A stretch of DNA of 20,000 bases. It comes from an uncultured Ignavibacteriales bacterium. Lineage in GTDB: Bacteria > Zixibacteria > MSB-5A5 > GN15 > JAAZOE01. The translations under genes were made by a program, and so were the position numbers. Under the pieces are notes generated by a model, which was not told where the DNA came from, did not search any database, and saw only the letters and a program-made list of their open reading frames with translations. Positions within the stretch are counted from its first letter, which is position 1. Each line of letters opens with the position of its first letter. The stretch spans positions 59,383 through 79,382 of the forward strand of contig CAZSYD010000007.1 of the NCBI GenBank assembly GCA_964611355.1, read 5' to 3'. Below, piece by piece: positions 1-13,883 of this stretch.

Positions 1-137
1 CCCTGGCGCGTTATAAGATGCCCGTCTTTATCCACCAGGAGGGCGCATTTTGCTTCCGCCCCCTTAAGCAGCTTGGTCAGCAGGGAGTCTATCCGAATAA
101 TCTCTTCCTCGTAAATAATCAGCGCATCTTCACTCAC
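1..137 (-). CDS. mglB: MglB-type Roadblock/LC7 GTPase-activating protein, 5' part only (runs off the window)
   Basis: Manual translation from GTG at 137 gives MSEDALIIYEEEIIRIDSLLTKLLKGAEAKCALLVDKDGHLITRQG, matching the Myxococcus-type MglB N-terminus (YEEE...A..vfLVDKnGqLI). GGAGG SD at 146-150 with an 8-nt spacer. Starts 16 nt after the mglA stop. Not in the ORF track. Confidence 0.88.
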   Translation of the reverse strand, partial: MSEDALIIYEEEIIRIDSLLTKLLKGAEAKCALLVDKDGHLITRQ

Positions 138-153
138 GGAGGTTTCCTCCTAC

Positions 154-1332
154 CTATTTTAACCCGAACAGGCGTTTGATGAATGATCGTTTCCCGGGCG
201 GCTTTTCAGCTCTCAGGGGCGGTTCCATTCGCGGCGCACCCGTCGGGGTTACATTCCTTTCCGGTTGACTATCTCCGCCAAATGCAGCGGCCGCTTCAGA
301 ATTGCGGGCAATACCGACGCTACCGGAATCCAAGGGCCCACCTATACGAGCGGAGTCATGATGTCTTCTCCGATTCATCCGCTGTTCATCCTCCATCGTA
401 TTTCCAGGGAAGGGACGAGACACCGGTTCAACCCTGACCGAGGGTTGAACATCCGGTTGAGCGGGCGCCGGTTGCCGGGGTTCCGGATTCCGGACAACTT
501 CCTGTCTTACCGGAGTCAATTCCGGCTGAGGCACCGGTTGGCGCGCAACGGGGGCGACCGTCTCCTGACGAATATGCTCCGGACGTGCGGGCTCCTGATA
601 TACCGGTTCACTAATTTCCTTATAGGCCGCCTGGACAGGCAGAGGCAGAGGCTGAGATATTGGTCGAGGGGGCGGCGAGACCGCTGCAGGTTGCGGCTGC
701 GTCGGTTGCGGCGCTTGTCCGGCGGCAGTTGCAGTGGACGGAACGGTACCGCCCGATTTGGCCTTTTCCAGAACCAGCTTCAGAATACATTTCAAAGTAT
801 CAAATACGCCGAACCCTTCGGTGGCCGAAGCCCTAAATTCCATCCAGCCGTGCGGATTAATCGTCGGGTTCATCTGCTCCGGGGTAAGAATTCCGGGCAG
901 ATCTTGTTTGTTATATTGAATAACGACCGGTATATCTTCCAATTTATATCCGTACTCAGTCAGATTTTCCTTGAGATTATTAAACGATTCGATGTTTTCA
1001 TCCATTTTGTCGGGTTGAGAATCGGCCACAAAAACCAGACCGTCAACCCCTCGCAGAACCAGTTTGCGGGTAGCATTATAATACACCTGCCCGGGGACGG
1101 TATAGAGCTGAAACTTGGCGGCAAAGCCGTTTATAGTACCGATATTTATCGGTAAAAAATCGAAGTAGAGGGTCCGATCGGCATCGGTGGCAAGCGAAAT
1201 CAGTTTCCCCTTGGTATCCGGGGGAACCTTTTTATGGACATACTGCAGGTTGGTCGTCTTGCCCGATAAACCCGGCCCATAGTAGACAATCTTGCAACTG
1301 ACCTCTCTGGAGGCGTAATTTATTGAAACCAT
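154..1332 (-). CDS. mglA: MglA-family small Ras-like GTPase with long Pro/Gln-rich C-terminal extension and terminal amphipathic helix
   Basis: N-terminus INYASREVSCKIVYYGPGLSGKTTNL (G1), DRTLYFDFLP (G2 with intrinsic Arg), YTVPGQVYYNATRKLVLRGVDGLVFVADSQ (G3), NKQD (G4), ASATEG (G5). Residues ~193-380 are low-complexity; the protein ends KRSFIKRLFGLK. Confidence 0.95.
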   Translation of the reverse strand: MVSINYASREVSCKIVYYGPGLSGKTTNLQYVHKKVPPDTKGKLISLATDADRTLYFDFLPINIGTINGFAAKFQLYTVPGQVYYNATRKLVLRGVDGLVFVADSQPDKMDENIESFNNLKENLTEYGYKLEDIPVVIQYNKQDLPGILTPEQMNPTINPHGWMEFRASATEGFGVFDTLKCILKLVLEKAKSGGTVPSTATAAGQAPQPTQPQPAAVSPPPRPISQPLPLPVQAAYKEISEPVYQEPARPEHIRQETVAPVARQPVPQPELTPVRQEVVRNPEPRQPAPAQPDVQPSVRVEPVSRPFPGNTMEDEQRMNRRRHHDSARIGGPLDSGSVGIARNSEAAAAFGGDSQPERNVTPTGAPRMEPPLRAEKPPGKRSFIKRLFGLK

Positions 1333-1342
1333 CTTTCCGCTT

Positions 1343-1693
1343 TCACTTAATCGCTTCCTGCCGGCTTAGCTTGCTAATCGCGTTTTTGATCTCCAGTCGA
1401 ACCAGTCCGATGTTAACCTCCGGTTCCGCCACGACAACCAGAATGCCTATTTCGGCATCGCAGAAAAACATCTTGGCATTATCGGCTTCAATCGTCACCT
1501 GAGTCAGTGGCCTTGATTCAAGACGCTCCAGCGACTTTTGAATATTGGAGGTTATGGACGCGGCAAGGGCACCGATGGCTTCCTCATCATACCGGGTGTT
1601 GAGATCGGCTGCGATCACAATTCCATCGTTGCCCACGACCATGCTGCCGATGATCCCGCTTGTTTTGTTTAATACCTCAAGAATTTGATACAT
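1343..1693 (-). CDS. Stand-alone Roadblock/LC7 (MglB/MglC-like) protein, ~116 aa
   Basis: GIIGSMVVGNDGIVIAA...IGALAA...VNIGLVRLEIK is a Roadblock signature. Start moved from 1738 to ATG 1693 because GGAGG lies at 1700-1704. Overlaps the upstream gene's 3' end by 17 nt. Confidence 0.9.
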   Translation of the reverse strand: MYQILEVLNKTSGIIGSMVVGNDGIVIAADLNTRYDEEAIGALAASITSNIQKSLERLESRPLTQVTIEADNAKMFFCDAEIGILVVVAEPEVNIGLVRLEIKNAISKLSRQEAIK

Positions 1694-2681
1694 AGCGTTC
1701 CTCCGCCCTGGCAAACATCGCCGGGCTATACCGTTCACTCATATATTTTCGAACCATATCCGCCGCCTGGGCAATGCGGATATGGATTGTTTCATCGATA
1801 TCCCTATCCGCCAGAATCATCAGATTTACGTGTTCAATACGCCTTAGGATTACCCTTATTCTGTGTGTGCTCAGGTCTATTCTTTCCGCTGATTCCTTGT
1901 GTTCGAACCGCTCCAGCAGGTCACGGCAGGCCTGTCTTAACATGATTGCCAGAGGGGCCCACATTTCAACATCGTCGCCGTTCCGATCATAGCGGGCCAG
2001 AAGCAACCCTTCCTCGTCAACCAGCAAAGCCATTTGGACGGCGTTTAATTCGCCGAGGTAAGCTACAGCCCTCTCAAACTGGTTTTCATCGGCGGTATAG
2101 GCTGACGCCTGAGCGCCCGCCCTGACGCTATTCGGGACCGCCTCTTCTCGCCGGTCGTTAGCCGTTCCCCCGCCGACCGCAATCTCGTTCACGGCCGGAT
2201 AAGCCTGATATTTGGTCGGTATATTGTCCGGGTAAATGACCGGCTTGGAAGCCGGTTCGGCACGGGAGGTTTTTTCTTTCCCGGCAGGCATCATTTGTTC
2301 CGCCAGACTCAGGTAAAACGGTCGCATGATGAATGGAGCCGCGATTACGTGCAAAATCACTCCGGGCAGATATTTTGTCATACCGAGCGAGAACGAAACG
2401 GAACTACCAAGACCGTACATTATAATTATGGCCAGTCCAAAGGCCGCTCCCAAAGCCATCCGGTATACAAGCGTTAAGGCCGAACTGACCATCAGGGCAG
2501 CCAGCGTGGTCTCGCGGCGGAAAAGAAAATAAACAAACCCGTAAAAGAGAAATTCGTAAAGCATATTAACAGCCGAGCCGCCGGCCAGCGGCAATCCCAG
2601 GCGGTTGGGGAAAATGACAATAGGAATGACCACCAGGATCAACGAGAACAACAAAATCAGTCGTCTGCTATTTTTATCCAT
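1677..2681 (-). CDS. Membrane protein with ~4 N-terminal TM helices, a linker and a C-terminal Roadblock/LC7 domain
   Basis: About four hydrophobic stretches in residues ~8-120, a Pro/Ala-rich linker, then AVQMALLVDEEGLLLARY... Roadblock-like motif and beta pattern. Confidence 0.8.
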   Translation of the reverse strand: MDKNSRRLILLFSLILVVIPIVIFPNRLGLPLAGGSAVNMLYEFLFYGFVYFLFRRETTLAALMVSSALTLVYRMALGAAFGLAIIIMYGLGSSVSFSLGMTKYLPGVILHVIAAPFIMRPFYLSLAEQMMPAGKEKTSRAEPASKPVIYPDNIPTKYQAYPAVNEIAVGGGTANDRREEAVPNSVRAGAQASAYTADENQFERAVAYLGELNAVQMALLVDEEGLLLARYDRNGDDVEMWAPLAIMLRQACRDLLERFEHKESAERIDLSTHRIRVILRRIEHVNLMILADRDIDETIHIRIAQAADMVRKYMSERYSPAMFARAEERYVSNS

Positions 2682-2702
2682 ACCAACTGTCTCCCGGCAG
2701 TA

Positions 2703-3611
2703 TCAGGCGGAAAGGCGCGGCAAGAGTGACGTCAACTTCATCTTCAAAGAACCAAGGTTGACAGTTTCCGAGCATACCACGGCCAGAAGCCGGCCGCAGG
2801 CGCCCGCCATATACGTCAATGAACCATCCGTTTCGATCATCATCGACTGCAAATCGCCAAATCCGCTTTCGCGCATCTGGATGGTACTGTACTTGGCCGT
2901 TTCGGCCGCCAGGGCGGCTACCAGATCGGTTTCGCCCGGAATATTCCATTCCGCCTCGATTACCAGACCGTCAGCATTAACCAATAGAACTCCTTCAACT
3001 CCCGGCGTTCCGACCAGCGACCGCAGCATCTGCTTAAAATCAATATCCGGTTGTGGCGGCGCTTCCGCAGGTGCAGGGGGCGGCGGCGGGGAGAATTGCG
3101 GAGCCTTTTGTACGGCCACAGGCGAAGTCGCGGAATATGCCGCGGAGGCGGGTTCCGGTGTGACGGCGGCCCGACCGCTATGATCGACGTTGAGCGGAAT
3201 CTTTCTGGCAATCTCAAGAAGCTTTTTTATCTGATCATTTTCGGGGTCTGCCCGGTGCAGTTTCTCAAGTAATCGGCAGGCCTTATTGAACTCGCCTTTA
3301 TATATATGGATTTCCGACAGGAGCAGTTCGGCGGCCCGGGTAGTCCCATCCAGTTCGATCGCCTTCTCAACCTCGGCCTCCGCCCAATCGTATAGCCCCT
3401 TATCCATGTTAATTTTGGCCATAACCATATGGGCGGAACCGTAGTTCGTATGTATTTTAAGACCATTCTGACAGATACGAAAGGCTTTATCCAATTCCCC
3501 CTTTTTGCGGTGCGCATCAGCCAGGGCGGCAAAAATTTGCGAACCCGGATTCTGATCCAGGATTTTATTGCACTTGGCAATTCTATCATCTATGTCTGAC
3601 CGGTCAATCAT
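2703..3611 (-). CDS. TPR-repeat protein fused to a C-terminal Roadblock/LC7 domain
   Basis: About three TPR-like repeats (FAALADAHRKKGELDKAFRICQNGL; AHMVMAKINMDKGLYDWAEAEVEKAIELD; AELLLSEIHIYKGEFNKACRLLEKL), a poly-Pro linker, then PGVEGVLLVNADGLVIEA...VAALAA...VNLGSLKMKL. Confidence 0.88.
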   Translation of the reverse strand: MIDRSDIDDRIAKCNKILDQNPGSQIFAALADAHRKKGELDKAFRICQNGLKIHTNYGSAHMVMAKINMDKGLYDWAEAEVEKAIELDGTTRAAELLLSEIHIYKGEFNKACRLLEKLHRADPENDQIKKLLEIARKIPLNVDHSGRAAVTPEPASAAYSATSPVAVQKAPQFSPPPPPAPAEAPPQPDIDFKQMLRSLVGTPGVEGVLLVNADGLVIEAEWNIPGETDLVAALAAETAKYSTIQMRESGFGDLQSMMIETDGSLTYMAGACGRLLAVVCSETVNLGSLKMKLTSLLPRLSA

Positions 3612-3704
3612 TCTTTTATTCCGCTATGAATAAGGCCATCCCATACTTTTTCGTTATCGAACGGATAATAACCGATGGCCAAATTTCAGTCAAACAAAAT
3701 CGAA

Positions 3705-4067
3705 TTATCCCAAAACCTTGCGGGTTTGGAATAATCCTATAAACCAAAGCGTTACCGTGGCCAGATACATTATTCCCGCTACGTCAAAAGTAATGGTAAA
3801 AAAGCCCAGTTTTTCGGCAAGAACAAATACCTGACCCGCCGCCAGGGTAATAAACGATACGACGAACAACTGCCAGCCTCGGGCCAGAGCCCCGCCCCTG
3901 ACCAGTCCAAGCAACTTAATCGCGACGCCAAGACAGGCTGCCGCGCCGATCAGGATGATTAGATTCAGCATCACCGGTACCTGGGCCAGGCTGGAAAAAT
4001 CAGCGGCTGCGGCGCGATTGGACGACAGGAAAACGATCGCCGCCGCGGTTATCAAAAGTTTACGCAT
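3705..4067 (-). CDS. Small membrane protein (signal peptide plus ~3 TM helices), unknown function
   Basis: Signal-peptide-like N-terminus ending AAAA|D and three hydrophobic segments. Start overlaps the upstream stop (TAATG at 4067). Confidence 0.8.
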   Translation of the reverse strand: MRKLLITAAAIVFLSSNRAAAADFSSLAQVPVMLNLIILIGAAACLGVAIKLLGLVRGGALARGWQLFVVSFITLAAGQVFVLAEKLGFFTITFDVAGIMYLATVTLWFIGLFQTRKVLG

Positions 4068-5278
4068 TATGACGCACCTGTAAGCATTTTAACGGTTCGT
4101 TCGGCTTTCCGGATCGAGTCATAAAGGTTTTCGTCCAGCCGATATTTCTTAACCAGTTCACGACGCAACGCCAATGGCTCGGAGATTTCCTTTTTCACGT
4201 GGCCGATGGCCTCATGGAACAGTTCCTGTCCCAGACGGTCAAAAATATATTCGAGCTGCTGGTGAAGCATATCTTCGAGCACGGTAAGCAGCCTATGCAA
4301 GCGCACCGATTCCGGAATCTTTCGCGCCTCGGTCAGGAACTTTTCGAATGACGGCCCCGAGTCCGACCTTATATCCCAACCGGGGAAAAAGACCAATACC
4401 CCGTGACGGAAACCCGACATAAACCGAGAATAGTCGGGATTGGACACCCCTACCATACTTTCTACTACTTTGCGAATCCTCAGAAAGCAGGCGTTGTAAA
4501 GCCTGAAAATAATGCCCAAGATGATTTCTTCTTCATCCTCTCCGGGGCCGATATCCTCGCCCGAAGCCCGCCCAGCGCCTTCCACCAGGCCGCTAACAAC
4601 CAGCTTATACAAGGCCCGGCAACTGGGGAATTCGCCGATTGGCGAAGCCTCGATAATATCGGGCAGGGTCCGTTCACCGTTTATTATAGAAAGGATTTTG
4701 AATTCATCCAGCGACAGCGTCACTTGATCGGAATCGGTTTTGGGCAAGGGCTTAACCCGCAACAGGACATCATTAGGCGGAATCACCTTCTGAATTTCCA
4801 TCCATTCATCTATGCGCCGTGTCCCCTCCATGATAATATTCATGGTCGGGAGATTAACCAGGTAGGCGGCGTCCTTTGGGGCGTCCCCTTCGGCAAAAGA
4901 AAATTCCCCCTCGGCCCAGCTAAAAAGATTATAAACGATTTCCTCAATCTGCATTCGCAGACATTCGGCCACTTCGTCCCGATCAAACAGCTCCATGTCG
5001 ATCAGTGTTGCACCAAGCGCGCGACCTGTCTGCTTATGGAGAGTGATCGCTCTTTCCAAATCTTTTTTATTGATCTTGCCGCGTTTAAGCAGGAGGCTTC
5101 CGAGAAGATCCTCACTGGTGTTCACGGACTTGGCATAGACAATATTCCCCTCCCGAAACGCAATCTCCTTCTTACGCGAACCGCTTTCAATCGCCAGTAT
5201 GCCGGTTTTCTTGCCGCTCGAAAGCAGTTGCAATACATCCGGGAATGAAACTGTTTTTAGATTCCCCGTAAGACCCAT
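4067..5278 (-). CDS. DUF4388 (PatA_N-like) domain protein with inserted MshEN-like tandem motif and probable winged-helix region
   Basis: MGLTGNLKTVSFPDVLQLLSSGKKTGILAI...IAFREGNIVYA and LFSWAEGEFSF...IIMEGTRRIDEW are typical DUF4388 motifs. LSLDEFKILSIINGERTLPDII...LYKLVVSGLVE resembles a winged helix. Confidence 0.85.
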   Translation of the reverse strand: MGLTGNLKTVSFPDVLQLLSSGKKTGILAIESGSRKKEIAFREGNIVYAKSVNTSEDLLGSLLLKRGKINKKDLERAITLHKQTGRALGATLIDMELFDRDEVAECLRMQIEEIVYNLFSWAEGEFSFAEGDAPKDAAYLVNLPTMNIIMEGTRRIDEWMEIQKVIPPNDVLLRVKPLPKTDSDQVTLSLDEFKILSIINGERTLPDIIEASPIGEFPSCRALYKLVVSGLVEGAGRASGEDIGPGEDEEEIILGIIFRLYNACFLRIRKVVESMVGVSNPDYSRFMSGFRHGVLVFFPGWDIRSDSGPSFEKFLTEARKIPESVRLHRLLTVLEDMLHQQLEYIFDRLGQELFHEAIGHVKKEISEPLALRRELVKKYRLDENLYDSIRKAERTVKMLTGAS

Positions 5279-5348
5279 ATCACCTTATCCGAAAACGTGT
5301 TAGCCGCACATATAGTCAACTGCGACAAATTGTACCATTTCTTTAGTT

Positions 5349-5375
5349 TTATCGGGTTTTGGAGGTAATACCTTA
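5349..5375 (-). promoter_or_regulatory. Putative sigma28 (FliA/WhiG)-type promoter for the Mgl/Roadblock cluster
   Basis: Minus strand reads TAAG-N15-CCCGATAA (consensus TAAA-N15-GCCGATAA), 70 nt upstream of the ATG at 5278. Confidence 0.6.
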
Positions 5376-5412
5376 ACCGATATCTTGCGCATCGGCAGCC
5401 ACGCCGCAGGAA

Positions 5413-7656
5413 CTAATCAGGATCGTCAAATGAATAATAGACATGCTCTCCTCTTTCGATCAAATTACCGAAAAGGTTTTCGTGAATCCTTTCTATTTCA
5501 CTATCACTCAATACATTATACGATTCCAGAGGGCGTTCGAGAAAAACCCTGTATTGCGAACAATATGACTGATCGACTGCTTCGGCCAAATCGTTGACCT
5601 TACATGCCATGAGGAAACAGGAGGTTAAATATCCGGAGTCAGGCTCCCGAAGAGATTTCAACGTCTCAATATCTTTCGAGAAAACCAACCGGCGAAAGTT
5701 GTCCGGTTCCAAAACGACCATGCCAGGAGCAATCCGGATGATATGGCTCGAATCGGTTTCGGCAGGATAATTACCGGGGAATATCCGCCAAACCGTTGGC
5801 GATTTGAGACCGGTCTCAATCTCGACAGGTTTGAATTTTATAAACGGTATTATTTCACAAGCCCGATTGAGCCGCCGCTCGGTCTGATATGCCGGCTCCA
5901 TAAAAACGAAATTTCGCGGGAATGAACCGCGCCGCCCGGCTAGATAAGGCAGGAGATTGTCGGTAAAATCGTCATGTCGGTTTTCCCGGTTTTGATTATA
6001 AATGACGATACCTCCGGCCCGGTTTATAATAACTGCCTGGGATGTGCCATGGTTGAAACTTTCCATATCGGGAAAAGACCGCGAGGTAAATAGGTCAACG
6101 CCCAGACAAGAAACCGCAATAAGCAAAACGAAAAAGCACGCCAACCGGCGCGCATAACGATATCTTATGGATAAAAAGAGAAGCGTTACCGCTATCAGAA
6201 TAACATAAACATAAACAGCTGGAAAAGACGGAGGACTGGCGGCCGCTATTTTCCATCGGCCAAACCACCCGACAAGGTAATGGGTGACGTTTAACAGCCT
6301 GTCCAGCACAATTCCCGGCACGATCGCCGCCGCAGGCAGCGCAAGGTTCACAAGAAGCAGGATGACTATCCCGATCACCGCCAGAGAAACCAGAGGAACA
6401 ATAACCAGGTTTGAAAAAACCGTCACCAGCGATGTCTGGCCGAAATAATACGACGTAATGGGCGCGGCTGTAAGCGACGCAATCAGCGACGACGAAGCGA
6501 TAAGCAACACGTACCGTACCGGAGTCCTCATTTTGAAACTTTCGAACAGGTAATTAACCTGCGGCAAAAACAGAATCAAAGCCCAGGCCACGGCAAAAGA
6601 AAGCTGGAATCCGATATCGAACAGGTTGCCGGGATCATAGATAATCAGTATGGCGGCGGCGGCGGCGATAATATTATTCAGATCGGTTCGGCGATAAAAA
6701 AAGTGGGCAGCCAGAATCAACGCCGCCATAAGCGAGGCCCGCACCACCGACGGCTGATTGTAAGACAGGTGGGAAAAGGCGACAATTATTACCAGCAGAA
6801 CCGTCAGCCGAACCGGCCGTTTCATGGGGAAAAAGCGCAGCAGAAAGACCATAACCAGAAGCACCAGCGCGACGTTCGATCCTGAGACGGCCAGAAGATG
6901 CATGGTCCCGGTGCGGCGAAAGGCCTGATAGATATCTTCCGGAATATCGCGCGTCTCCCCTATTAGAAATCCGGAAGCAAGAGAAGCCGGTATTTCGGTA
7001 AGATTATTTCGGAAACATTCAAGTATCCACTGCCGGATATTATTAATCGTTCTGCCGAACAGGTTATATACCGGTTGATGCACCATGACCCGTACCGGGT
7101 TGCTTATATAAACAGTCCCGCGAATACCCCTGTTAAACAAATAACGGCTGTAATCGAAACCTCCCGGATAGCCGGATCGGCGCGGTCGGCCAAGACTGCC
7201 GCTAAAACTAATTTGATCGCCCAGAGAAAACCGCGTTGTCTCTCTTCGGATATTCATCAGGATCGATCCCGAAGCAGGCCTTATCGAATCGTTGATCACT
7301 ATCGAATCGACACGGCAGGTTATAAGCGTCTTATGACGTTTGATGGCCGGCCATTTGTCTATCCGGCCGAAAAAGCGAAGCTGTTCGCGGTAACCGGCGA
7401 GGCGGCCGATATCATCAGTGGGGAATAAATGATACTTCATTCCGGCGCTTAAGAACGTGGCGGCCATCGCCAACGCCGCCAGTGGAAAGATAAAATATTT
7501 CCGGGGTAAACGAAAAAAGCCATAAAGGAGAAAAATAAATGCCGCAACCACCAGAGCTATCGGAATCGGCAGGCCCGGATCGATCTTCCACCCCAGCAGG
7601 GTTCCGATGATAACAAAAGTCAGGACAACAACCGCCGGATAACGGAAACTAAACAT
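5413..7656 (-). CDS. comEC: ComEC/Rec2 DNA-uptake channel with degenerate C-terminal domain
   Basis: N-terminal TMs, an OB-like region (PGGFDYSRYL), and Competence-domain motifs FRRTGTMHLLAVSGSNVA, PSVVRASLMA and FDIGFQLSF. ATG at 7656 (or GTG 7659) overlaps the murJ stop. Confidence 0.93.
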   Translation of the reverse strand: MFSFRYPAVVVLTFVIIGTLLGWKIDPGLPIPIALVVAAFIFLLYGFFRLPRKYFIFPLAALAMAATFLSAGMKYHLFPTDDIGRLAGYREQLRFFGRIDKWPAIKRHKTLITCRVDSIVINDSIRPASGSILMNIRRETTRFSLGDQISFSGSLGRPRRSGYPGGFDYSRYLFNRGIRGTVYISNPVRVMVHQPVYNLFGRTINNIRQWILECFRNNLTEIPASLASGFLIGETRDIPEDIYQAFRRTGTMHLLAVSGSNVALVLLVMVFLLRFFPMKRPVRLTVLLVIIVAFSHLSYNQPSVVRASLMAALILAAHFFYRRTDLNNIIAAAAAILIIYDPGNLFDIGFQLSFAVAWALILFLPQVNYLFESFKMRTPVRYVLLIASSSLIASLTAAPITSYYFGQTSLVTVFSNLVIVPLVSLAVIGIVILLLVNLALPAAAIVPGIVLDRLLNVTHYLVGWFGRWKIAAASPPSFPAVYVYVILIAVTLLFLSIRYRYARRLACFFVLLIAVSCLGVDLFTSRSFPDMESFNHGTSQAVIINRAGGIVIYNQNRENRHDDFTDNLLPYLAGRRGSFPRNFVFMEPAYQTERRLNRACEIIPFIKFKPVEIETGLKSPTVWRIFPGNYPAETDSSHIIRIAPGMVVLEPDNFRRLVFSKDIETLKSLREPDSGYLTSCFLMACKVNDLAEAVDQSYCSQYRVFLERPLESYNVLSDSEIERIHENLFGNLIERGEHVYYSFDDPD

Positions 7657-9211
7657 CACGTACCCGGGGCTTAATATCGCGCAGCGACGGAATAATGTTC
7701 AGGGCAAATGCAATCAACAGGTACCCGACCAGGCCCGCGCCGAAAAGTATCGCCACCCTGATAACCCGGTCGCCAAGCTCATCGCCGAAGGCAATAAACC
7801 ATTCCGCGCTCGAGACGAAATAAAGCAAAAACGCAAGCAGCGCCGCCGCCAAAGATGAACGAAAAAACAGCAGCGCCACCCGGCCGCATTTTATCTCTCC
7901 CACCATTTTGGGAATATTGTAAAGCAGGAGACCGAAATTAACCAGCCCGCCCAGCGCCGTCGCTGCCGCCAGCCCGGCAAAACCCATAAATGGAATAAAA
8001 ATAAAATTGGCCGCCAGATTGACCACGACCGCAATTATCGAATATCTCATCGGGTGGACCGCATCTTTGACGGCATAATAAATCGGGGCCGTCACCCGCA
8101 CTCCGGCAAAACCGATCAGGCCGACGCTGTACCAGATCAGGGCGTGATACGTATTGACGGTGTCAACGGCTGCAAATCGGCCGTGCTGAAAAAGAAGGCC
8201 GATAACTTCATCGCCGCAGGCGACGAAAAAGGCGGCCACGGGAAAAACCAGAAAAAAGCAAAGATGAATCGCCCGGTAAAATGTCGCGGCTATACCGGCG
8301 GCGTCATCATCGGCGGCCTGCGCGGAGGCCCTGGGCAGGGCCACAGTTCCCAGGGCGACGGCGATCATCCCGAGCGGAAGATGCATCAGGCGATACGAAT
8401 AAGTCAAATAGGATACCGACCCGGCCGCCAGCAGGGAAGCCAGCAGCGTATTGATAAAAATGTTGATGCGGCTGGCCGCCAGCCCTCCGATCATCGGCGT
8501 CATCAGACGCCCGATACTTCTCAGGCCGGGATGCATGATATAAGGGAGAAAACGAAATCGGAAACCGATCCTTCTCAGACTGGGAAGCTGAATGGCCAGT
8601 TGACCAAGCCCTCCCAGAAGCACGCCTGCGGCCATACCGAAGATAGGCCTCTCCAAATAGGGACAAATAAGATAGGCCGCAGAAATGACGCCGATATTGA
8701 AAAGCGACGGCGCCAGAGCCGGGATGCCAAAACGATCGAAGGAATTAAGAATCGACATAACCAGCGCCGCCAGCGCCACCAGAAGCAGAAAGGGAAACAT
8801 AAGAGCCGTCAGTTGAGAAGTAAGCTCCGCTTTGCCTGAGATCTCGCCAAATCCGGGCGCGATCAATTTAACCAGATATGGCGACAGTAACGCCCCGATA
8901 ACGACAACCACCGCAACGACGATAGTCATAATCGAAAAACATACCTGGGCCAGCTCAAAGGCGGCTTCTTTCCCGCCATATTTCAACTCCCGTTTGAAAA
9001 CCGGCACGAAAGCCGAAGATAAGGCTCCTTCGGCAAACAGATCGCGCAGAAGATTGGGGATTCGATAGGCGGCGAAAAAGGCGTCCGCCGCCAGGGAAGC
9101 TCCAAACAGGTGGGCAAAAACCTGTTCCCTTATCAGGCCGAGCACCCGCGACAGGAATGTTCCCGAGGCGACGCGCGAAAACGCTAATGTCAAGCCGGTC
9201 TTTGACGCCAT
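7649..9211 (-). CDS. murJ: Lipid II flippase MurJ (MviN)
   Basis: SRVLGLIRE, ADAFFAAYRIPNLLRDLFAEGALSSAFVPVF and YSYRLMHLPLGMIAVALGTVALP motifs; many TM helices. Confidence 0.97.
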   Translation of the reverse strand: MASKTGLTLAFSRVASGTFLSRVLGLIREQVFAHLFGASLAADAFFAAYRIPNLLRDLFAEGALSSAFVPVFKRELKYGGKEAAFELAQVCFSIMTIVVAVVVVIGALLSPYLVKLIAPGFGEISGKAELTSQLTALMFPFLLLVALAALVMSILNSFDRFGIPALAPSLFNIGVISAAYLICPYLERPIFGMAAGVLLGGLGQLAIQLPSLRRIGFRFRFLPYIMHPGLRSIGRLMTPMIGGLAASRINIFINTLLASLLAAGSVSYLTYSYRLMHLPLGMIAVALGTVALPRASAQAADDDAAGIAATFYRAIHLCFFLVFPVAAFFVACGDEVIGLLFQHGRFAAVDTVNTYHALIWYSVGLIGFAGVRVTAPIYYAVKDAVHPMRYSIIAVVVNLAANFIFIPFMGFAGLAAATALGGLVNFGLLLYNIPKMVGEIKCGRVALLFFRSSLAAALLAFLLYFVSSAEWFIAFGDELGDRVIRVAILFGAGLVGYLLIAFALNIIPSLRDIKPRVRDV

Positions 9212-10961: not shown

Positions 10962-11171
10962 ATTAATTCAAGGTTTTTCTTAATTGTTAAACATAAAGAT
11001 GAAACCGTCATAATAGNNNNNNNNNNNNNNNNNNNNNNNNNNNNNNNNNNNNNNNNNNNNNNNNNNNNNNNNNNNNNNNNNNNNNNNNNNNNNNNNNNNN
11101 NNNNNNNNNNNNNNNNATTAATTCAAGGTTTTTCTTAATTGTTAAACATAAAGATGAAACCGTCATAATAG
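10962..11171. other. 100-N scaffold gap (11017-11116) flanked by an identical 55-bp overlap; probable assembly artefact
   Basis: 10962-11016 is identical to 11117-11171. Confidence 0.9.
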
Positions 11172-11935
11172 ACAGCCCGATCTGACGACATGCGTATCCT
11201 GATTAACTCCTTCAGAAACGATTCTTTTTCCTCGACCGACGCCGGTTCTTTCAGAATCGACAAAGAATAGTCGATGCCCAGCATTCGACCCGGTTGGTCG
11301 ATTCGTACCAACCCGTAAGGCAAACGCATCTCCCGGTGCGCAATTTCACCCAGTTCATCAATTGAAAAAGCCGGAGGATAGATAACCGCCGAAGCCTGCG
11401 GGAAATCAGCCAGCGGATCCGGGTCTTCCGGGTTTAATTTGACACGGTAACTGTTGCATTTGCTGATAAAGCTATTGACAAAGCTGATACAGATATCGGC
11501 CCGGACAGGAAGCGAGTTCGAGACAAGTGAAATCCGGTACGAAGTCTTATCTTTAAATTTTATCTCGGCCTGCCGGGAGGTCAAGGGGCCGGAGATATTT
11601 TTCAACAACCGAATTTGCCGAGGAAATTTCCGGCAGAACCTGAGAAAATCGTCCTTATACCAGTTTTCGACTATTCGCTGCCAGGGATGAACCGTAAGGG
11701 ATTCGTTATTGGCTAGCTGAATAGGGATATGAGCGGCTTTAAGTTGTTTGAGGGCAAATAGTATGGTGACGTCGTCAAGCATCAGGTAGGATTCACCCAC
11801 GGGTCTGACCAGAAGGGGGTTCCTCACCTTTCCTTCCCGTTCAATTTCCCGAACCAACCACGGCAGACGCTTATTAGCCGGGGACTCAAAAGTAAGGATC
11901 TTTTCGGAGGATACGATCTTCAGTTTGTCCAACAT
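11135..11935 (-). CDS. SbnI/SerK-like (ParB/Srx-fold) protein with degenerate active-site motif
   Basis: LKIVSSEKILTFE..KRL...IEREGKVRNPLLV...YLMLD....LKQL....IPIQ...PWQRIV and the C-terminal LPYGLVRIDQPGRMLGIDYSLSIL follow the SbnI pattern. The DGxHR motif is replaced by DDVTI. Confidence 0.7.
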   Translation of the reverse strand: MLDKLKIVSSEKILTFESPANKRLPWLVREIEREGKVRNPLLVRPVGESYLMLDDVTILFALKQLKAAHIPIQLANNESLTVHPWQRIVENWYKDDFLRFCRKFPRQIRLLKNISGPLTSRQAEIKFKDKTSYRISLVSNSLPVRADICISFVNSFISKCNSYRVKLNPEDPDPLADFPQASAVIYPPAFSIDELGEIAHREMRLPYGLVRIDQPGRMLGIDYSLSILKEPASVEEKESFLKELIRIRMSSDRAVYYDGFIFMFNN

Positions 11936-11982
11936 ATACGTGTTCCTGTTCCGAGCCGGTTACTGTTGTCTGTACCGTTTTT

Positions 11983-11998
11983 AGCAAAACAGGTGCCG
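11983..11998 (-). promoter_or_regulatory. Putative sigma54 (-24/-12) promoter
   Basis: Minus strand CGGCACCTGTTTTGCT (GG-N10-GC; consensus TGGCAC-N5-TTGCW), 47 nt upstream of the ATG at 11935. Confidence 0.6.
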
Positions 11999-12175
11999 CC
12001 CGCAGGTTTTCGGGAGCTTGGAGGGCTTATTCAGGCAGATTAAATAGATTGCCCGACAACAGATTATAGAACAGGCATCGGTTTCCGGCTATTTCTGCCC
12101 AATCCAAACCGGATTAATCCTGCAACAATGGAAGTAAAAGTTAGCAAATATGCAAAAGCTTTCTCGAATGGTCGG

Positions 12176-13294
12176 TTATCGGATTATGAGTCTGGCCGCC
12201 TTTTCCGCCGTTTCCAGCATCACCGAATCGTCAATCGAAGAAAAGGCCGCCCGGGGAAATCCGACCCGCCAAGATTTATAGGTCTCCTGATGACGGATTA
12301 ATTTTTTTCCATCTGATGAAAAAATATAGAGATAACCCTCAACATGCCGCCTGTCTTTTGGTACCGATTTACCGCTGTTGACGTCGACGCCACAGACAAA
12401 ATATCGCCCATCCCTTGAAATAGCCAAAGAAGTAAACCGCTTTTCCATCTCATTCAGGCGGAATTCTCTCAATAGCTTTCCCGATGTCAGCCGATACACC
12501 TCGAATTTCTTTGAAGCCATCAGGATTAACAGGTCGGCTTCTACATGAACGGCCATATCTGTAATTTCCTGTTCGGAGAAGCTAACCTGCTTTATTTCAT
12601 CCTCGTTATGGTAAAGGCGGAAAAGACCGCCGGAGAAAGCGCCAACATACTGTTCCCTGCGGTCGAAAATAAAATGGTCGGCGGGCGGCAGCGTGGTCAG
12701 CGGATTCCCCGTTGAATCATGGACGAGCAGACCGGCATCGCCCTGGTCAATGATAAATCTCTCCCCCGACGGGGATATTGAAATACCGTGGTAATTATCA
12801 AAGGTCAGGACGTTGAAATGGTCGCCAGTCGATTTATAAAGATGCAATCGGGTGGGCGAAATTCCCTGAACGCCTTCTATGCCGAAAACGGCGCCGTTAT
12901 CAGCAATATAAAACATATTGGCCGCCGGTTTGGAAATTTTCCAGCGACGTTTTCCGTTGGAGTCAAAGACTTCCAGCTTGACCGTTTTCAAATCGGTAGG
13001 CGACCGGTCGGCATAGGTTACCAACCCCAAAAACCTGCCGTTCGGCGACAAGGTCGGCCTGACATTATTTTTTAATTTCCGTGAAAAAAGTTTTTTCCCC
13101 TGATTGTCATACATAGCAATGTACGGCCGACCATAGACAAGGAAATTTCCTTCCAATGATCCCAGAACCCGATCTTTTTCGTTGAGAGCAATGGAAAATT
13201 CGCTTTCCAGCCTGTCGGCCAGGGCGATCCGCGGCAGCCCGAGGATGGTTAAAACCAACGCGGTGACTATGATCCTGATGGCCAAAGAGAACAT
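12176..13294 (-). CDS. Secreted/periplasmic beta-propeller-like protein
   Basis: Signal peptide MFSLAIRIIVTALVLTILGLPRIALA|D from ATG 13294, with GGAG upstream. Repeated blade motifs LSPNGRFLGL, IADNGAVF, ISPSGERFII and ISRDGRYFV. Confidence 0.7.
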   Translation of the reverse strand: MFSLAIRIIVTALVLTILGLPRIALADRLESEFSIALNEKDRVLGSLEGNFLVYGRPYIAMYDNQGKKLFSRKLKNNVRPTLSPNGRFLGLVTYADRSPTDLKTVKLEVFDSNGKRRWKISKPAANMFYIADNGAVFGIEGVQGISPTRLHLYKSTGDHFNVLTFDNYHGISISPSGERFIIDQGDAGLLVHDSTGNPLTTLPPADHFIFDRREQYVGAFSGGLFRLYHNEDEIKQVSFSEQEITDMAVHVEADLLILMASKKFEVYRLTSGKLLREFRLNEMEKRFTSLAISRDGRYFVCGVDVNSGKSVPKDRRHVEGYLYIFSSDGKKLIRHQETYKSWRVGFPRAAFSSIDDSVMLETAEKAARLIIR

Positions 13295-13403
13295 AATACT
13301 CCATCTACCTATTGACATAATAGCAATATGCATAAGCAAAACGCATCCGCAGCGCAACTATATATCGCGGTATATTCCCGGTTAAATTGAAAGGTCTGGT
13401 AGA

Positions 13404-13883
13404 TCAGATTTTCGGTCTGTTGATGAGATCGGGAGGCGAATCCTTTGAAATGATGCCGGCGAAACTTTTAATTTTCAAGTTGGAATTGGCCGGCATATCG
13501 GGAATCCCGACGATTGAACCGGCCGCGCGGTTATCTTTATGATTTATCCATTTTACCCTAAGGATAATATCCTTCGCGTATTTTTGAGCCTGTTGACGAA
13601 CTGCTTCCATTCCCTGACCGGGGAAAGATCCTTCGTTCATCAAATAAACCAGAGGCGGAAAATCGGTGAAAATATGCAGTTCACGCTTCTTAAACAGGTC
13701 TTTGTTGTGTTCGGCAAATCGCAGAAAGGTAAGGAAAGATATAATCTGCAAATCGGCCGGTTTGCCGGATACGGCACAGCGAAAAAGAATGCCGTATTCC
13801 GGGACGGCAAACGAAATAATGCCTTGGTTTTCATTCCCTGGGAATACCTGCCCGGAGACGTAGCATTTGAGAATATCTTTCAT
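13404..13883 (-). CDS. RNase HI-like fold protein, catalytic acidic residues mostly lost
   Basis: CYVSG (for YxDG), LHIFTDFPPLVYLMN (for l.vygDSqLVv.qvn) and VKWINHKDNRAAG (for f.hvpRe.N..AD). Confidence 0.6.
   Translation of the reverse strand: MKDILKCYVSGQVFPGNENQGIISFAVPEYGILFRCAVSGKPADLQIISFLTFLRFAEHNKDLFKKRELHIFTDFPPLVYLMNEGSFPGQGMEAVRQQAQKYAKDIILRVKWINHKDNRAAGSIVGIPDMPANSNLKIKSFAGIISKDSPPDLINRPKI

Follow-up and report, generated by a model that had tools for sequence, protein, structure and literature searches.

Gene Content and Organization of the Locus

The window, the whole stretch of 20,000 nucleotides that was analyzed, holds seven co-oriented genes on its minus strand. They encode, in order, a PATAN/DUF4388 protein, a small membrane protein, a TPR-Roadblock fusion, a Roadblock protein with a membrane part (TM-Roadblock), a solo Roadblock, an MglA with a long tail, and MglB. 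The first-pass annotation had listed these seven genes as overlapping or lying 10-93 nt apart. This observation is confirmed: by their coordinates, two pairs of neighbors overlap, by 1 and 17 nt, and the remaining neighbors are separated by 93, 21, 10, and 16 nt. The features are as follows, in the direction of reading and beginning with the upstream neighbor:

5413..7659, minus strand: ComEC-like competence channel gene (Pfam Competence, E 1.9e-53, and DUF4131)
4067..5278, minus strand: PATAN/DUF4388 protein, 403 aa (Pfam DUF4388, E 1.5e-35)
4949..5104, minus strand: predicted MshEN-type c-di-GMP-binding motif, residues 59-110 of the PATAN protein (NCBIfam NF053729)
3705..4067, minus strand: small integral membrane protein, 120 aa (hydropathy)
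2703..3611, minus strand: TPR-Roadblock fusion, 302 aa (Pfam Robl_LC7, E 7.8e-11, and several TPR families)
1677..2681, minus strand: TM-Roadblock, 334 aa (AF2 model and Foldseek)
1343..1693, minus strand: solo Roadblock, 116 aa from the Met at 1693 (Pfam Robl_LC7, E 2.9e-12)
154-1332, minus strand: MglA, 392 aa
748..1332, minus strand: MglA G domain, residues 1-195 (phmmer to MglA structures, and motifs)
154..747, minus strand: MglA C-terminal tail, residues 196-392 and stop codon (conserved C-terminus)
1..137, minus strand: MglB, first 45 codons (nt 3-137); the gene runs past the window start to G000:C7:59031

The 1-nt overlap joins the PATAN stop to the start of the small membrane protein, and the 17-nt overlap lies between the end of the TM-Roadblock gene and the solo Roadblock gene, whose longest reading frame begins at 1738 but for which the later Met is the start in most orthologs. 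From this spacing we infer that mglA and mglB are arranged for co-transcription with the genes of three other Roadblock proteins, the PATAN protein and the small membrane protein. The comEC-like gene, which shares this strand and lies 134 nt upstream, is context and is left out of the module count. The seven genes are real, but MglB does not end the cluster: outside the window, after a gap of 66 nt, it continues directly into pilB-pilT-pilC and a gene for a PilS-like kinase (PilB scores 682 bits on TIGR02538, cut-off 675.65).

The GTPase, Its Tail and MglB

Residues 3-195 of MglA align without gaps to the MglA structures of M. xanthus (5ymx, E 1.9e-77) and T. thermophilus (3t12, E 1.7e-72) by phmmer, and the P-loop (19-26), Arg53, Thr78, Gln82, and NKQD (141-144) are present in 27/27 orthologs; judged by its sequence, the GTPase is a canonical group-1 MglA. 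The tail for which it had been singled out is present, although its conserved C-terminal anchor motif had been missed. The tail is rich in Pro, Gln, and Ala, disordered and unalignable between genomes. At its end lies KRSFIKRLFGLK (nt 157-192), a conserved motif that is polybasic and amphipathic, with a moderate hydrophobic moment (0.42) over the last 11 residues. All 24 Zixibacteria MglA sequences carry such a tail, 119-238 aa long and conserved at its basic/aromatic C-terminus, as does the MglA of a locus from a small candidate phylum (L046), while in the Armatimonadota MglA proteins (198-199 aa) the tail is absent. The composition and conservation of the tail end suggest that it is probably a membrane tether. 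The full MglB in the genome has 162 residues, matches Pfam Robl_LC7 (E 9.1e-14) and scores 92.7 bits on the NCBIfam MglB model, which is under its cut-off of 200; in a tree it clusters with the MglB proteins of other phyla (SH-aLRT 99).

Four Roadblock Proteins and a Predicted Heterodimer

Four Roadblock domains had been counted around the one GTPase, and the count stands, with Pfam matches for three and the fold for the TM-Roadblock. The latter had no Pfam Roadblock match at E <= 0.01, and a six-frame search of the genome with Robl_LC7 gave it 17.1 bits (E 0.0088). In its AF2 model (mean pLDDT 82), residues 1-130 (nt 2292-2681) form a helical membrane bundle, residues 131-200 a disordered linker and residues 201-329 (nt 1695-2081) a Roadblock fold of the order alpha-beta-beta-alpha-beta-beta-beta-alpha. 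Foldseek matched this domain to Roadblock/LC7, LAMTOR2, and MglB structures at E ~1e-7 with target TM-scores of 0.72-0.86, and to a Streptomyces Roadblock, so that by its modeled fold the protein is clearly a fourth Roadblock despite the Pfam miss. Its profile is present in 199 of 201 sampled genomes of the phylum, and its identity across orthologs is 21-51%, against 67-89% for MglB. The 2.57 Mb genome has no Robl_LC7 match outside these four proteins, whose arrangement is conserved in the phylum; we therefore consider their clustering to be more than chance.

The TPR-Roadblock consists of TPR repeats (~2-136), a low-complexity linker and a Roadblock domain (~194-300). The solo Roadblock, 54-79% identical among 23 orthologs, has its best profile matches to Asgard Roadblocks (7e-13), followed by CvnB5 (1e-4) and MglB (4e-4), with MglC at E 0.89. 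By fold and by profile, LAMTOR2 ranks among the best matches of the cluster's Roadblocks. The small membrane protein has a signal-like N-terminus and approximately three hydrophobic helices (hydrophobic segments 22-62 and 64-114), belongs to no family in Pfam or NCBIfam, and had look-alikes in the atlas from Zixibacteria only. With the bundle of the TM-Roadblock it bears out the claim that the cluster encodes its own membrane components. In two Zixibacteria families (L042 and L043) the third Roadblock is without its membrane part, which implies that its anchor is dispensable or that the small membrane protein supplies it.

Roadblock heterodimers had also been proposed. A complex prediction for TM-Roadblock residues 196-334 with the solo Roadblock gave an ipSAE of 0.65 (runs 0.65, 0.54, and 0.75), relative to 0.02 for the best control; 116/157 solved complexes and 2/215 mismatched pairs attain the mark of this test. 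The partners had pLDDT values of at least 84, the runs had at least 71% of contacts in common, and the predicted interface comprises helix 2 and strand 3 on each side. The heterodimer is thus predicted, with the reservation that solved Roadblock dimers exist, so that a pass shows likeness, which alone could yield it, and is not proof of binding; the test covered this one pair and does not discriminate which Roadblock pairs with which.

The PATAN Protein and Its c-di-GMP Motif

The PATAN protein (AF2 pLDDT 79.6) has an N-terminal PATAN domain (residues 4-159), then an alpha/beta region and helical bundle (~171-400). A Pfam search found no receiver domain, and Foldseek against PDB folds found no global match (best E 0.1), including none that explains the C-terminal 230 residues. 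The MshE-related c-di-GMP motif NF053729 scored 44.1 bits (cut-off 38) and sits as a helical insert inside the PATAN domain, where Foldseek matches it locally to c-di-GMP-bound GSPII-B of T. thermophilus PilF (8pfa_B, 8pdk_B; 52 columns, rmsd 1.1 A, 35% identity, probability 1.00). In L046 and L047, the N-terminus of PilB matches these profile columns as well. The earlier suggestion that the PATAN protein is the cluster's input is plausible.

Conservation and the Pilus Neighborhood

Conservation of gene order had been set beforehand as a refutation test. The order PATAN, small TM protein, TPR-Roadblock, third Roadblock, solo Roadblock, MglA, MglB, PilB was held in all 23 further loci fetched (12/12 and 11/11), which represent 15 families across Zixibacteria. 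The PATAN protein and the TPR-Roadblock are kept in 23/23 loci, and the small membrane protein was found in 20/23 by BLAST and in the remaining 3 by position and hydropathy. However, the unrelated murJ is equally syntenic (22/23) and comEC holds the equivalent place in 21/23, indicating that the region is frozen in this phylum and that synteny within Zixibacteria is weak functional evidence. The argument is consequently carried by recurrence across phyla, with two loci per lineage. In Armatimonadota (L044, L045), a TPR-Roadblock, a 2-TM Roadblock-like protein, a solo Roadblock, MglA, MglB, and PATAN directly precede pilM-N-O and the secretin gene pilQ; a TPR-Roadblock match at E <= 1e-25 occurs in only 2/61 sampled genomes of that phylum. 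At L046 and L047, from the small candidate phylum, the set consists of TPR-Roadblock, solo Roadblock, tailed MglA, MglB, and pilB-T-C-S, with a REC-PATAN-Roadblock fusion upstream. Related sets, with PATAN nearby or fused, thus lie beside pilus genes in two phylum-level lineages other than Zixibacteria.

Comparison with Known Systems

The module shares with the M. xanthus and T. thermophilus systems a group-1 MglA with Arg53, Thr78, and Gln82 and an adjacent Roadblock GAP homolog, MglB; seen with MglC, RomR/RomX, and SgmX, those systems also have extra Roadblock paralogs, a TPR protein and an association with pilB, pilT, and pilC. It differs in the order mglA then mglB, in having three extra Roadblocks, each coupled to mglA and unlike MglC in sequence, in the fusion of TPR repeats to one Roadblock domain and of a membrane bundle to another, in the 119-238 aa tail and anchor motif of MglA, and in an operon that includes a PATAN/c-di-GMP protein and a small membrane protein. 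In Bdellovibrio, passages of PMC3983030 describe a hub of MglA, the TPR protein Bd2492, RomR, and CdgA, in which MglA binds Bd2492 and works with it and a c-di-GMP receptor to control pili at one pole; there, however, mglB is lost, the TPR protein is Roadblock-free and encoded with tamAB, and the c-di-GMP receptor is a different protein from PATAN. PATAN genes have been recorded near group-1 mglA and mglB, according to part of PMC4316618. Cyanobacterial PATAN regulators of the PatA and PixG/PixE type are encoded with, and act on, the type IV pilus motor, with which they interact in Synechocystis (preprint 10.1101/2021.06.11.447907, in part); whereas those have a receiver domain and phosphorylation input, the protein here has an MshEN-type motif inside its PATAN domain, then a helical domain.

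Two further comparisons had been drawn earlier. As in Ragulator-Rag, Roadblock-fold subunits, here a predicted heterodimer, would be membrane-tethered around a small GTPase; but neither a Rag-type GTPase with its own C-terminal Roadblock nor a lipidated wrap like LAMTOR1 is present, and anchoring falls to an integral membrane bundle, with a separate tail anchor on the GTPase. The likeness is an analogy of logic and does not imply membership. Conservons (CvnA-D) likewise have an operon that joins a Roadblock protein and an MglA-family GTPase to a membrane component, and the solo Roadblock profile matches CvnB5 at E 1e-4, but the comparison fails on the defining parts: CvnA-type kinase and CvnC are missing, the GTPase is of group 1, not group 2, and the sole nearby kinase is PilS-like, after pilC.

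Alternative Explanations

It is conceivable, although we regard it as unlikely, that the extra Roadblocks are MglC-like modulators of MglB or a RomR-like factor, tuning GAP activity or location with no MglA contact and no membrane scaffold, and with the pilus still as output. The M. xanthus MglB paralog MglC is described in part of PMC4719450 as lacking MglA binding and GAP activity yet binding MglB and RomR, and MglB is here far better conserved than the TM-Roadblock. Against this, the solo Roadblock profile matches MglC far less well than Asgard Roadblocks, CvnB5 or MglB, and MglC is encoded by an orphan gene, while the extra Roadblocks are tightly coupled to mglA; for these reasons we do not see simply an mglCBA/Rom module, in keeping with the first-pass annotation. 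The fusions to TPR repeats and a membrane bundle also point to adaptor or anchor roles, and it is a pair of extra Roadblocks that passes the complex test.

Another reading, to which we give rather little credence, is that the module serves DNA uptake, not motility, by placing or activating competence pili with the ComEC channel encoded upstream. Natural transformation is also powered by type IV pilus motors, MglA/MglB reportedly affect pilus functions and competence in Thermus, and the proximity and conserved position of comEC fit. The equal synteny of murJ weakens that argument, comEC does not adjoin the module in Armatimonadota, L046 or L047, and a pilB-pilT-pilC-pilS set that includes a retraction ATPase is usual for T4aP of the motility type. 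This reading is a choice of output and is compatible with the switch mechanism.

Finally, the cluster had been interpreted as a distinct, free-standing membrane switch. On such a Ragulator- or conservon-like logic, the Roadblocks would be a GEF/GAP scaffold for MglA with a non-pilus output and coincidental pil genes. The membrane components that the cluster encodes are consistent with this, as are the four Roadblock domains, the ligand-binding protein, the LAMTOR2 and Streptomyces Roadblock fold matches and the close solo Roadblock relatives that adjoin a histidine kinase at loci without pilus genes (L050 and L052, the two examined of four loci L050-L053, lack MglA, PATAN and pilus genes over 10 kb around). 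We nevertheless consider this very improbable. The module borders on pilus genes in each of three phylum-level lineages (pilBTC in two, pilMNOQ in one), group-1 MglA is the class known to control T4aP, and Pfam/NCBIfam searches of the locus found no CvnA-type kinase, CvnC, Roadblock-bearing Rag-type GTPase or LAMTOR1-like anchor. The earlier interpretation is partly supported overall, with its free-standing switch giving way to a canonical core in an elaborated form of known pilus control.

A Proposed Switch for Type IV Pili

As the GTPase/GAP core is canonical group-1 MglA/MglB, the cluster is most naturally read as elaborating the control that MglA is known to exert over type IV pili. With the functions that we infer for all proteins of the cluster, we believe, at a probability of roughly 60%, that it encodes an MglA/MglB switch, elaborated by a membrane tether, Roadblock adaptors and c-di-GMP input, that controls the T4aP machine encoded directly downstream. 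As in Myxococcus and Thermus, MglB would be the GAP for an MglA that alternates between GTP and GDP forms. The long flexible tail of MglA, with a polybasic amphipathic helix at the end, would keep it at the inner membrane. The TM-Roadblock and solo Roadblock would form a membrane-anchored heterodimer, a platform on which the TPR-Roadblock may dock via its Roadblock domain, leaving its TPR arm to touch MglA-GTP or the PilB/PilC motor, comparable to the TPR effectors SgmX and Bd2492. The MshEN-type insert of the PATAN protein would bind c-di-GMP, and the protein may link the level of this second messenger to the motor or the switch, much as the PATAN regulators of cyanobacteria target the pilus motor. 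The output of such a switch would be the place and time of pilus extension, for motility, adhesion or DNA uptake.

Gene Organization and the Adjacent Pilus Motor Genes

All seven genes that the first-pass annotation had described as co-oriented lie on the minus strand between positions 1 and 5278 of the window, with comEC and murJ directly upstream of them.

Genes of the module and its upstream neighbors (window positions)
5413-9211, minus strand, comEC (748 aa) and murJ (520 aa)
4067-5278, minus strand, PATAN/DUF4388 protein (Pfam DUF4388, E 1.5e-35)
3705-4067, minus strand, small membrane protein, 120 aa
2703-3611, minus strand, TPR-Roadblock fusion (Pfam Robl_LC7, E 7.8e-11)
1677-2681, minus strand, TM-Roadblock, 334 aa, hydrophobic N-terminus (no Pfam or NCBIfam Roadblock match)
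1343-1693 (longest ORF start 1738), minus strand, solo Roadblock (Pfam Robl_LC7, E 2.9e-12)
154-1332, minus strand, MglA, 392 aa (weak Pfam Arf/Ras/Gtr1 matches)
3-137, minus strand, MglB, first 45 codons in the window (full gene 162 aa, Robl_LC7, E 9.1e-14)

Adjacent genes of the module either overlap (by 1 and 17 nt) or have gaps of 93, 21, 10, and 16 nt between them. The window spans positions 59383-79382 of contig C7, and the MglB sequence was completed from the contig beyond the window start, where pilB begins 66 nt past MglB on the same strand and is followed by genes for PilT, PilC, a PilS-like histidine kinase and a PpiC-type isomerase. PilB has an MshEN N-terminus and reaches the equivalog cut-off of TIGR02538 (682.2 bits vs. 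675.65), which together with the adjacent T2SSE and T2SSF domains identifies these genes as those of a type IVa pilus motor. The small membrane protein has no family in Pfam or NCBIfam. Promoter-like (10 vs. 5.0 ± 2.4 in shuffles) and terminator-like sites (9 vs. 7.1 ± 3.1) within positions 1-5600 were near expectation and were not counted as evidence. None of the 23 sequencing runs listed as containing all or part of the locus is an RNA run.

Elsewhere on the minus strand of the window are three consecutive ORFs of 266, 393, and 159 aa (11135-13883) with no Pfam family at E ≤ 1e-5, and a 505-aa ORF (17577-19094) whose sole Pfam hits, near its N-terminus, are to small zinc-ribbon models (LysW-like, Lar-like).

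Conservation within Zixibacteria

The TM-Roadblock protein occurs in 41/41 genomes of the order, our own included, and its profile matches 199 of 201 genomes sampled from 19 families of the phylum; the two genomes without a match are 96% complete. Conservation of gene order was tested in relatives by comparing the 20 kb surrounding the gene in 12 genomes from four families and in 11 genomes from eleven further families, and all 23 loci have the same order as the window: PATAN protein, small membrane protein, TPR-Roadblock, third Roadblock, solo Roadblock, MglA, MglB, PilB. The small membrane protein was found by BLAST in 20 of these loci; in the remaining three, the corresponding gap contains an ORF of 121-128 aa whose hydrophobic segments are laid out alike. 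PilT, PilC, and PilS come next in 22/23 loci, with none of them detected in the remaining one (L040), and murJ is in place in 22/23. Synteny inside the phylum is nevertheless weak evidence of a functional link, because the order of genes around the module is generally frozen, as murJ and comEC illustrate. Among the best 120 of at least 500 matches to the TPR-Roadblock protein, every named homolog belongs to Zixibacteria or the FCB group.

In two families the third Roadblock protein has 160-171 aa and no hydrophobic segment (L042:9938-10453 and L043:9599-10081); the membrane bundle is missing, with no room for a separate membrane part, and the small membrane protein is kept. In a further Zixibacteria locus pilB is split into two ORFs of 149 and 445 aa (L019:12588-14281), which may reflect a frameshift or assembly error. 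Many TM-Roadblock profile matches in Zixibacteria genomes were flagged with one in-frame TGA, probably where the match extends a few codons too far and takes in the stop of the upstream neighbor gene.

Four Classes of Roadblock Protein

The first-pass annotation counted four Roadblock domains, and the count is right because the 334-aa protein, which falls below the cut-off of the Pfam sequence model (17.1 bits), folds as a Roadblock by AF2 and Foldseek. Its AF2 model, built on an alignment of 34 orthologs (mean pLDDT 82), comprises a helical bundle (residues 3-130), a disordered linker (131-200) and an alpha-beta-beta-alpha-beta-beta-beta-alpha domain (201-329) with pLDDT > 90. Foldseek against the PDB placed this protein in the Roadblock/LC7 fold at E ~ 1e-7 with TM-scores on target of 0.72-0.86, the top matches being a Streptomyces Roadblock/LC7 protein (3kye), LAMTOR2, MglB of Myxococcus and Thermus, and Asgard Roadblock3. 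Searching all 2.57 Mb of the genome in six frames gave exactly four Robl_LC7 matches, namely these four proteins.

The assignment of MglB rests on its Robl_LC7 match (E 9.1e-14), its position 16 nt after mglA and a clade with MglB of two other lineages; it scores below the NCBIfam equivalog cut-off (NF052242, 92.7 bits vs. 200) over a full-length alignment (1-160) to a model built on Thermus-type MglB. A profile of 24 solo Roadblock sequences (116 aa in the window) searched against the PDB matched an Asgard archaeal Roadblock (E 7e-13), CvnB5 (E 1e-4), M. xanthus MglB (E 4e-4), and LAMTOR2 (E 7e-3). In a tree of 55 Roadblock domains, of which several rows are long and the deep branches do not resolve, MglB of three lineages forms one clade (SH-aLRT 99), the Zixibacteria TM-Roadblocks another (98), and the solo Roadblocks of Zixibacteria and of L046/L047, two loci from a small candidate phylum, a third (82); a TPR-Roadblock clade of the same composition is weak (77). 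Judged from this tree, the four Roadblock classes are distinct and old rather than recent duplicates.

The genes of the TM-Roadblock and the solo Roadblock overlap, and this one pair was chosen for complex prediction. The TM-Roadblock domain (196-334) and the solo Roadblock gave an ipSAE of 0.65 (runs 0.65, 0.54, and 0.75; best control 0.02), passing a mark that is reached by 116/157 solved complexes and 2/215 mismatched pairs, with a partner pLDDT of at least 84 and at least 71% of contacts shared between runs. The predicted interface comprises helix 2 and strand 3 of each chain, the classical Roadblock dimer interface. As Roadblock dimers are already among solved structures, the pass may reflect likeness, and the predicted heterodimer is silent on which Roadblock pairs with which.

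A Canonical MglA with a C-terminal Tail

Over residues 3-195, MglA aligns ungapped to M. xanthus MglA (5ymx, E 1.9e-77) and T. thermophilus MglA (3t12, E 1.7e-72). It has the P-loop (GPGLSGKT at 19), DRT at 52 with the Arg finger Arg53, the G3 motif TVPGQ at 78 with Gln82, and NKQD at 141, and the motifs are kept in 27/27 orthologs examined. The G3 motif is of the TxxGQ form, with Thr in place of Asp, and this residue, Thr78, is named as a hallmark of MglA in the available text of PMC3000849. By similarity over the whole G domain and by these motifs, the GTPase is a canonical group-1 MglA. It exceeds the single-domain size of about 195-200 residues, as its 392 aa include a tail of 197 aa past the G domain; the tail is an added extension and not another family.

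All 24 Zixibacteria sequences have such a tail (119-238 residues), biased in composition to Pro, Ala, Ser, Glu, Lys, and Gln, which cannot be aligned from one family to another. At the end of the tail is a conserved basic run followed by a short basic/aromatic/hydrophobic motif, KRSFIKRLFGLK in the window, and the last 11 residues have a moderate hydrophobic moment (0.42). We infer that the tail binds membrane, and its motif is reminiscent of the amphipathic helices through which the C-termini of MinD and FtsA target the membrane. In the genome, which is 96% complete, no protein reaches the MinD cut-off of TIGR01968 (best match 53 bits vs. 212.9).

A PATAN Protein with a Predicted c-di-GMP Site

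The first gene product of the module belongs to the PATAN/DUF4388 family (PF14332; 122.3 bits vs. a Pfam gathering cut-off of 25). Its residues 59-110 score 44.1 bits against NF053729, the NCBIfam model of the MshE-related c-di-GMP-binding motif (cut-off 38), and in the AF2 model (pLDDT 79.6) they form helices inserted in the PATAN sheet. Local Foldseek matched this insert to the c-di-GMP-bound GSPII-B of T. thermophilus PilF over 52 columns (rmsd 1.1 Å, 35% identity, probability 1.00), and the insert columns also match the N-terminus of PilB in other genomes. Because the NF053729 cut-off is reached and the insert has a local match to bound PilF GSPII-B, c-di-GMP binding by this protein, as an MshEN-type receptor, is well predicted. 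Whole-model Foldseek gave no global match (best E 0.1), and the C-terminal 230 residues have no family; look-alikes in the Atlas are PATAN-bearing hypothetical proteins of other phyla and serve as leads only. PatA-type response regulators join PATAN to a receiver (REC) domain, whereas the PATAN protein here has no Pfam Response_reg match, and that assignment was rejected.

The genome has a second PATAN gene on contig C21 (L054:5873-6781, minus strand; 302 aa, two PATAN stretches, E 5.1e-39), whose neighbors are unrelated: radical SAM, NfeD/SPFH, and methyltransferase genes, then a 206-aa ORF without a family.

Related Clusters Outside the Phylum

When 1.84 billion representatives were searched with a solo Roadblock profile, 2143 relatives were found, of which 304 have E ≤ 1e-10; many have ~115 aa and an identity of 33-49%, and some are large and carry the Roadblock at the C-terminus. 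From these relatives three lineages outside Zixibacteria were followed.

In two Armatimonadota MAGs (L044/L045) the gene order is TPR-Roadblock, a protein of ~1000 aa without an assigned family, a Roadblock-like 2-TM protein, solo Roadblock, MglA, MglB, a short PATAN protein and a protein of 186-198 aa, followed by PilM, PilN, PilO, and the secretin PilQ (all four confirmed by Pfam in L044). The 2-TM protein, detected in L044 only, has 237 aa, with two membrane helices and a Roadblock-like C-terminus that matches the TM-Roadblock profile at E 1.4e-5. The Armatimonadota MglA is untailed (198-199 aa) and the PATAN homolog is without the c-di-GMP-motif insert. Occurrence is patchy, the TPR-Roadblock profile matching 2 of 61 sampled Armatimonadota genomes at E ≤ 1e-25. 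Two L044 proteins embedded between the Roadblock/MglA/PATAN genes and pilM, at 6041-9202 (1053 aa) and 12388-12948 (186 aa), have no Pfam family.

The candidate-phylum loci L046/L047 have the order TPR-Roadblock, solo Roadblock, tailed MglA, MglB, pilB-pilT-pilC-pilS, and the MglA tail ends in a C-terminal motif of the same kind as in Zixibacteria. The TPR-Roadblock profile matches 7/7 genomes of this GTDB phylum, of which one record is labeled uncultured Gemmatimonadota. Farther upstream are three more Roadblock-like genes and a 416-aa fusion of receiver, PATAN and Roadblock (L046:5559-6809), bringing the cluster to about seven Roadblock-like genes. The fusion is a Rosetta-stone link between the PATAN and Roadblock parts. 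The set of TPR-Roadblock, solo Roadblock, MglA, and MglB, with PATAN near or fused, recurs beside two different pilus operons.

The third lineage comprises loci L050-L053, labeled Vulcanimicrobiota/Eremiobacterota among others, of which L050 and L052 were examined (one titled Vulcanimicrobiota, the other Bacillota). At both, a close solo-Roadblock relative lies between a receiver-kinase and a protein of 847-865 aa whose C-terminus carries two Roadblock domains in tandem (L050:7427-9970, L052:5810-8407). Neither locus has a GTPase gene close by. No MglA, PATAN, or pilus gene was found within 10 kb, so the Roadblock family is also reused elsewhere.

Relationship to Known Systems

MglA/MglB is the model for bacterial front-rear polarity, with knowledge drawn almost entirely from Myxococcus, in which the genes of the partners are dispersed around the genome. 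SgmX is an effector of MglA-GTP that brings PilB to the pole. Two M. xanthus PATAN proteins appear in the proximity list around SgmX, without further study in the available text of that source (PMC11580455). In the parts available of the corresponding sources, the Bdellovibrio TPR protein Bd2492 is bound by MglA in a hub that includes a c-di-GMP receptor (PMC3983030), and the Synechocystis pilus motor interacts with PATAN regulators (preprint 10.1101/2021.06.11.447907). Some group-1 and group-5 mglA genes lie near PATAN genes, according to the available text of Wuichet and Sogaard-Andersen (PMC4316618), which cites Makarova et al. (2006) for MglB homologs near PATAN genes.

A search for literature linking "Zixibacteria" with "MglA" found none. 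The first-pass annotation did not recognize the architecture as a described system. The parts and some of their pairwise links are known; we did not find a description of the conserved seven-gene set, of the TPR- and TM-Roadblock fusions, of a c-di-GMP motif inside PATAN or, among the papers listed for MglA with an amphipathic helix or membrane targeting sequence, of a tailed MglA. Supplementary table S2 of PMC4316618, which gives MglA gene neighborhoods, may list related clusters.

A Probable Switch Dedicated to the Type IV Pilus

The observation from which the annotation started was borne out, and its interpretation is supported in part. The data show the domain identities, the coupling of the genes, their adjacency to the pilus motor genes and their conservation. 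We consider it probable (roughly 60%) that the module is an MglA/MglB switch devoted to the type IV pilus, in which MglA would be tethered to the membrane through its tail, a membrane-anchored Roadblock pair with the TPR-Roadblock would form a docking platform or effector arm, and the PATAN protein would pass the c-di-GMP level to the motor or the switch. On this reading the module is an elaborated MglA/MglB pilus controller and not a new class of system.

That the extra Roadblocks act solely on MglB, in the manner of MglC, is unlikely. MglC is defined as an orphan MglB paralog (McLoon et al., PMC4719450, available text), whereas the three extra Roadblock genes here are all at most four genes away from mglA. 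MglC orthology of the solo Roadblock was rejected because the solo Roadblock profile matches MglC (7ct3) at E 0.89 only. Less likely still is an output through competence pili acting with ComEC; comEC is directly upstream of the module and was detected in 21/23 loci, in a phylum where positions around the module are generally frozen.

An autonomous Ragulator- or conservon-like pathway without relation to pili is the least credible of these readings. Reuse of the Roadblock family at L050/L052, away from pilus genes, is compatible with it, and the recurrence of the set beside two pilus operons speaks for the dedicated pilus switch. In Ragulator, the lipidated LAMTOR1 wraps Roadblock heterodimers and the Rags bind via their own Roadblock domains. 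The likeness drawn by the annotation extends to the fold and a predicted heterodimer, but we rejected Ragulator as the family since MglA lacks a Roadblock domain and nothing resembling LAMTOR1 was seen. The conservon (CvnABCD) joins the histidine kinase CvnA, the Roadblock CvnB, CvnC (DUF742) and a group-2 MglA in one operon; this family was rejected too, as kinase and DUF742 are absent from the seven genes and the GTPase is group-1-like.

More tentatively, and by analogy, the module might be an ancient bacterial counterpart of eukaryotic small-GTPase membrane placement that serves specifically the type IV pilus motor under the control of c-di-GMP, although we regard this as doubtful. The layout of this MglA, a G domain, a hypervariable linker and a polybasic anchor, is like that of eukaryotic Ras/Rho, and its linker and polybasic amphipathic anchor would work like the Ras/Rho C-terminal region; a membrane-anchored Roadblock heterodimer with the TPR-Roadblock arm would be a docking and exchange platform like Ragulator. 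Since the four Roadblock classes form separate clades across phyla, such a platform would have arisen long ago and not by recent duplication.

Returning to the dedicated pilus switch, the whole presumed interaction set (GTPase, GAP, three Roadblock adaptors, TPR arm, membrane anchors, and second-messenger sensor) would be held in one short, predicted operon beside its target motor, fixed across the phylum, and a module so compact is a system suited to reconstitution. It offers direct tests of the role of the extra Roadblock paralogs, of the PATAN link to MglA systems, which was seen in genome context in 2006 and 2014 and never explained, and of whether, in bacteria, the tail of a Ras-like GTPase can tether it to the membrane. 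Being compact, conserved and open to direct testing, the presumed set of interactions is of interest for bacterial polarity and for the evolution of small-GTPase platforms. For the phylum itself, nearly all uncultured Zixibacteria appear to encode a regulated type IV pilus.
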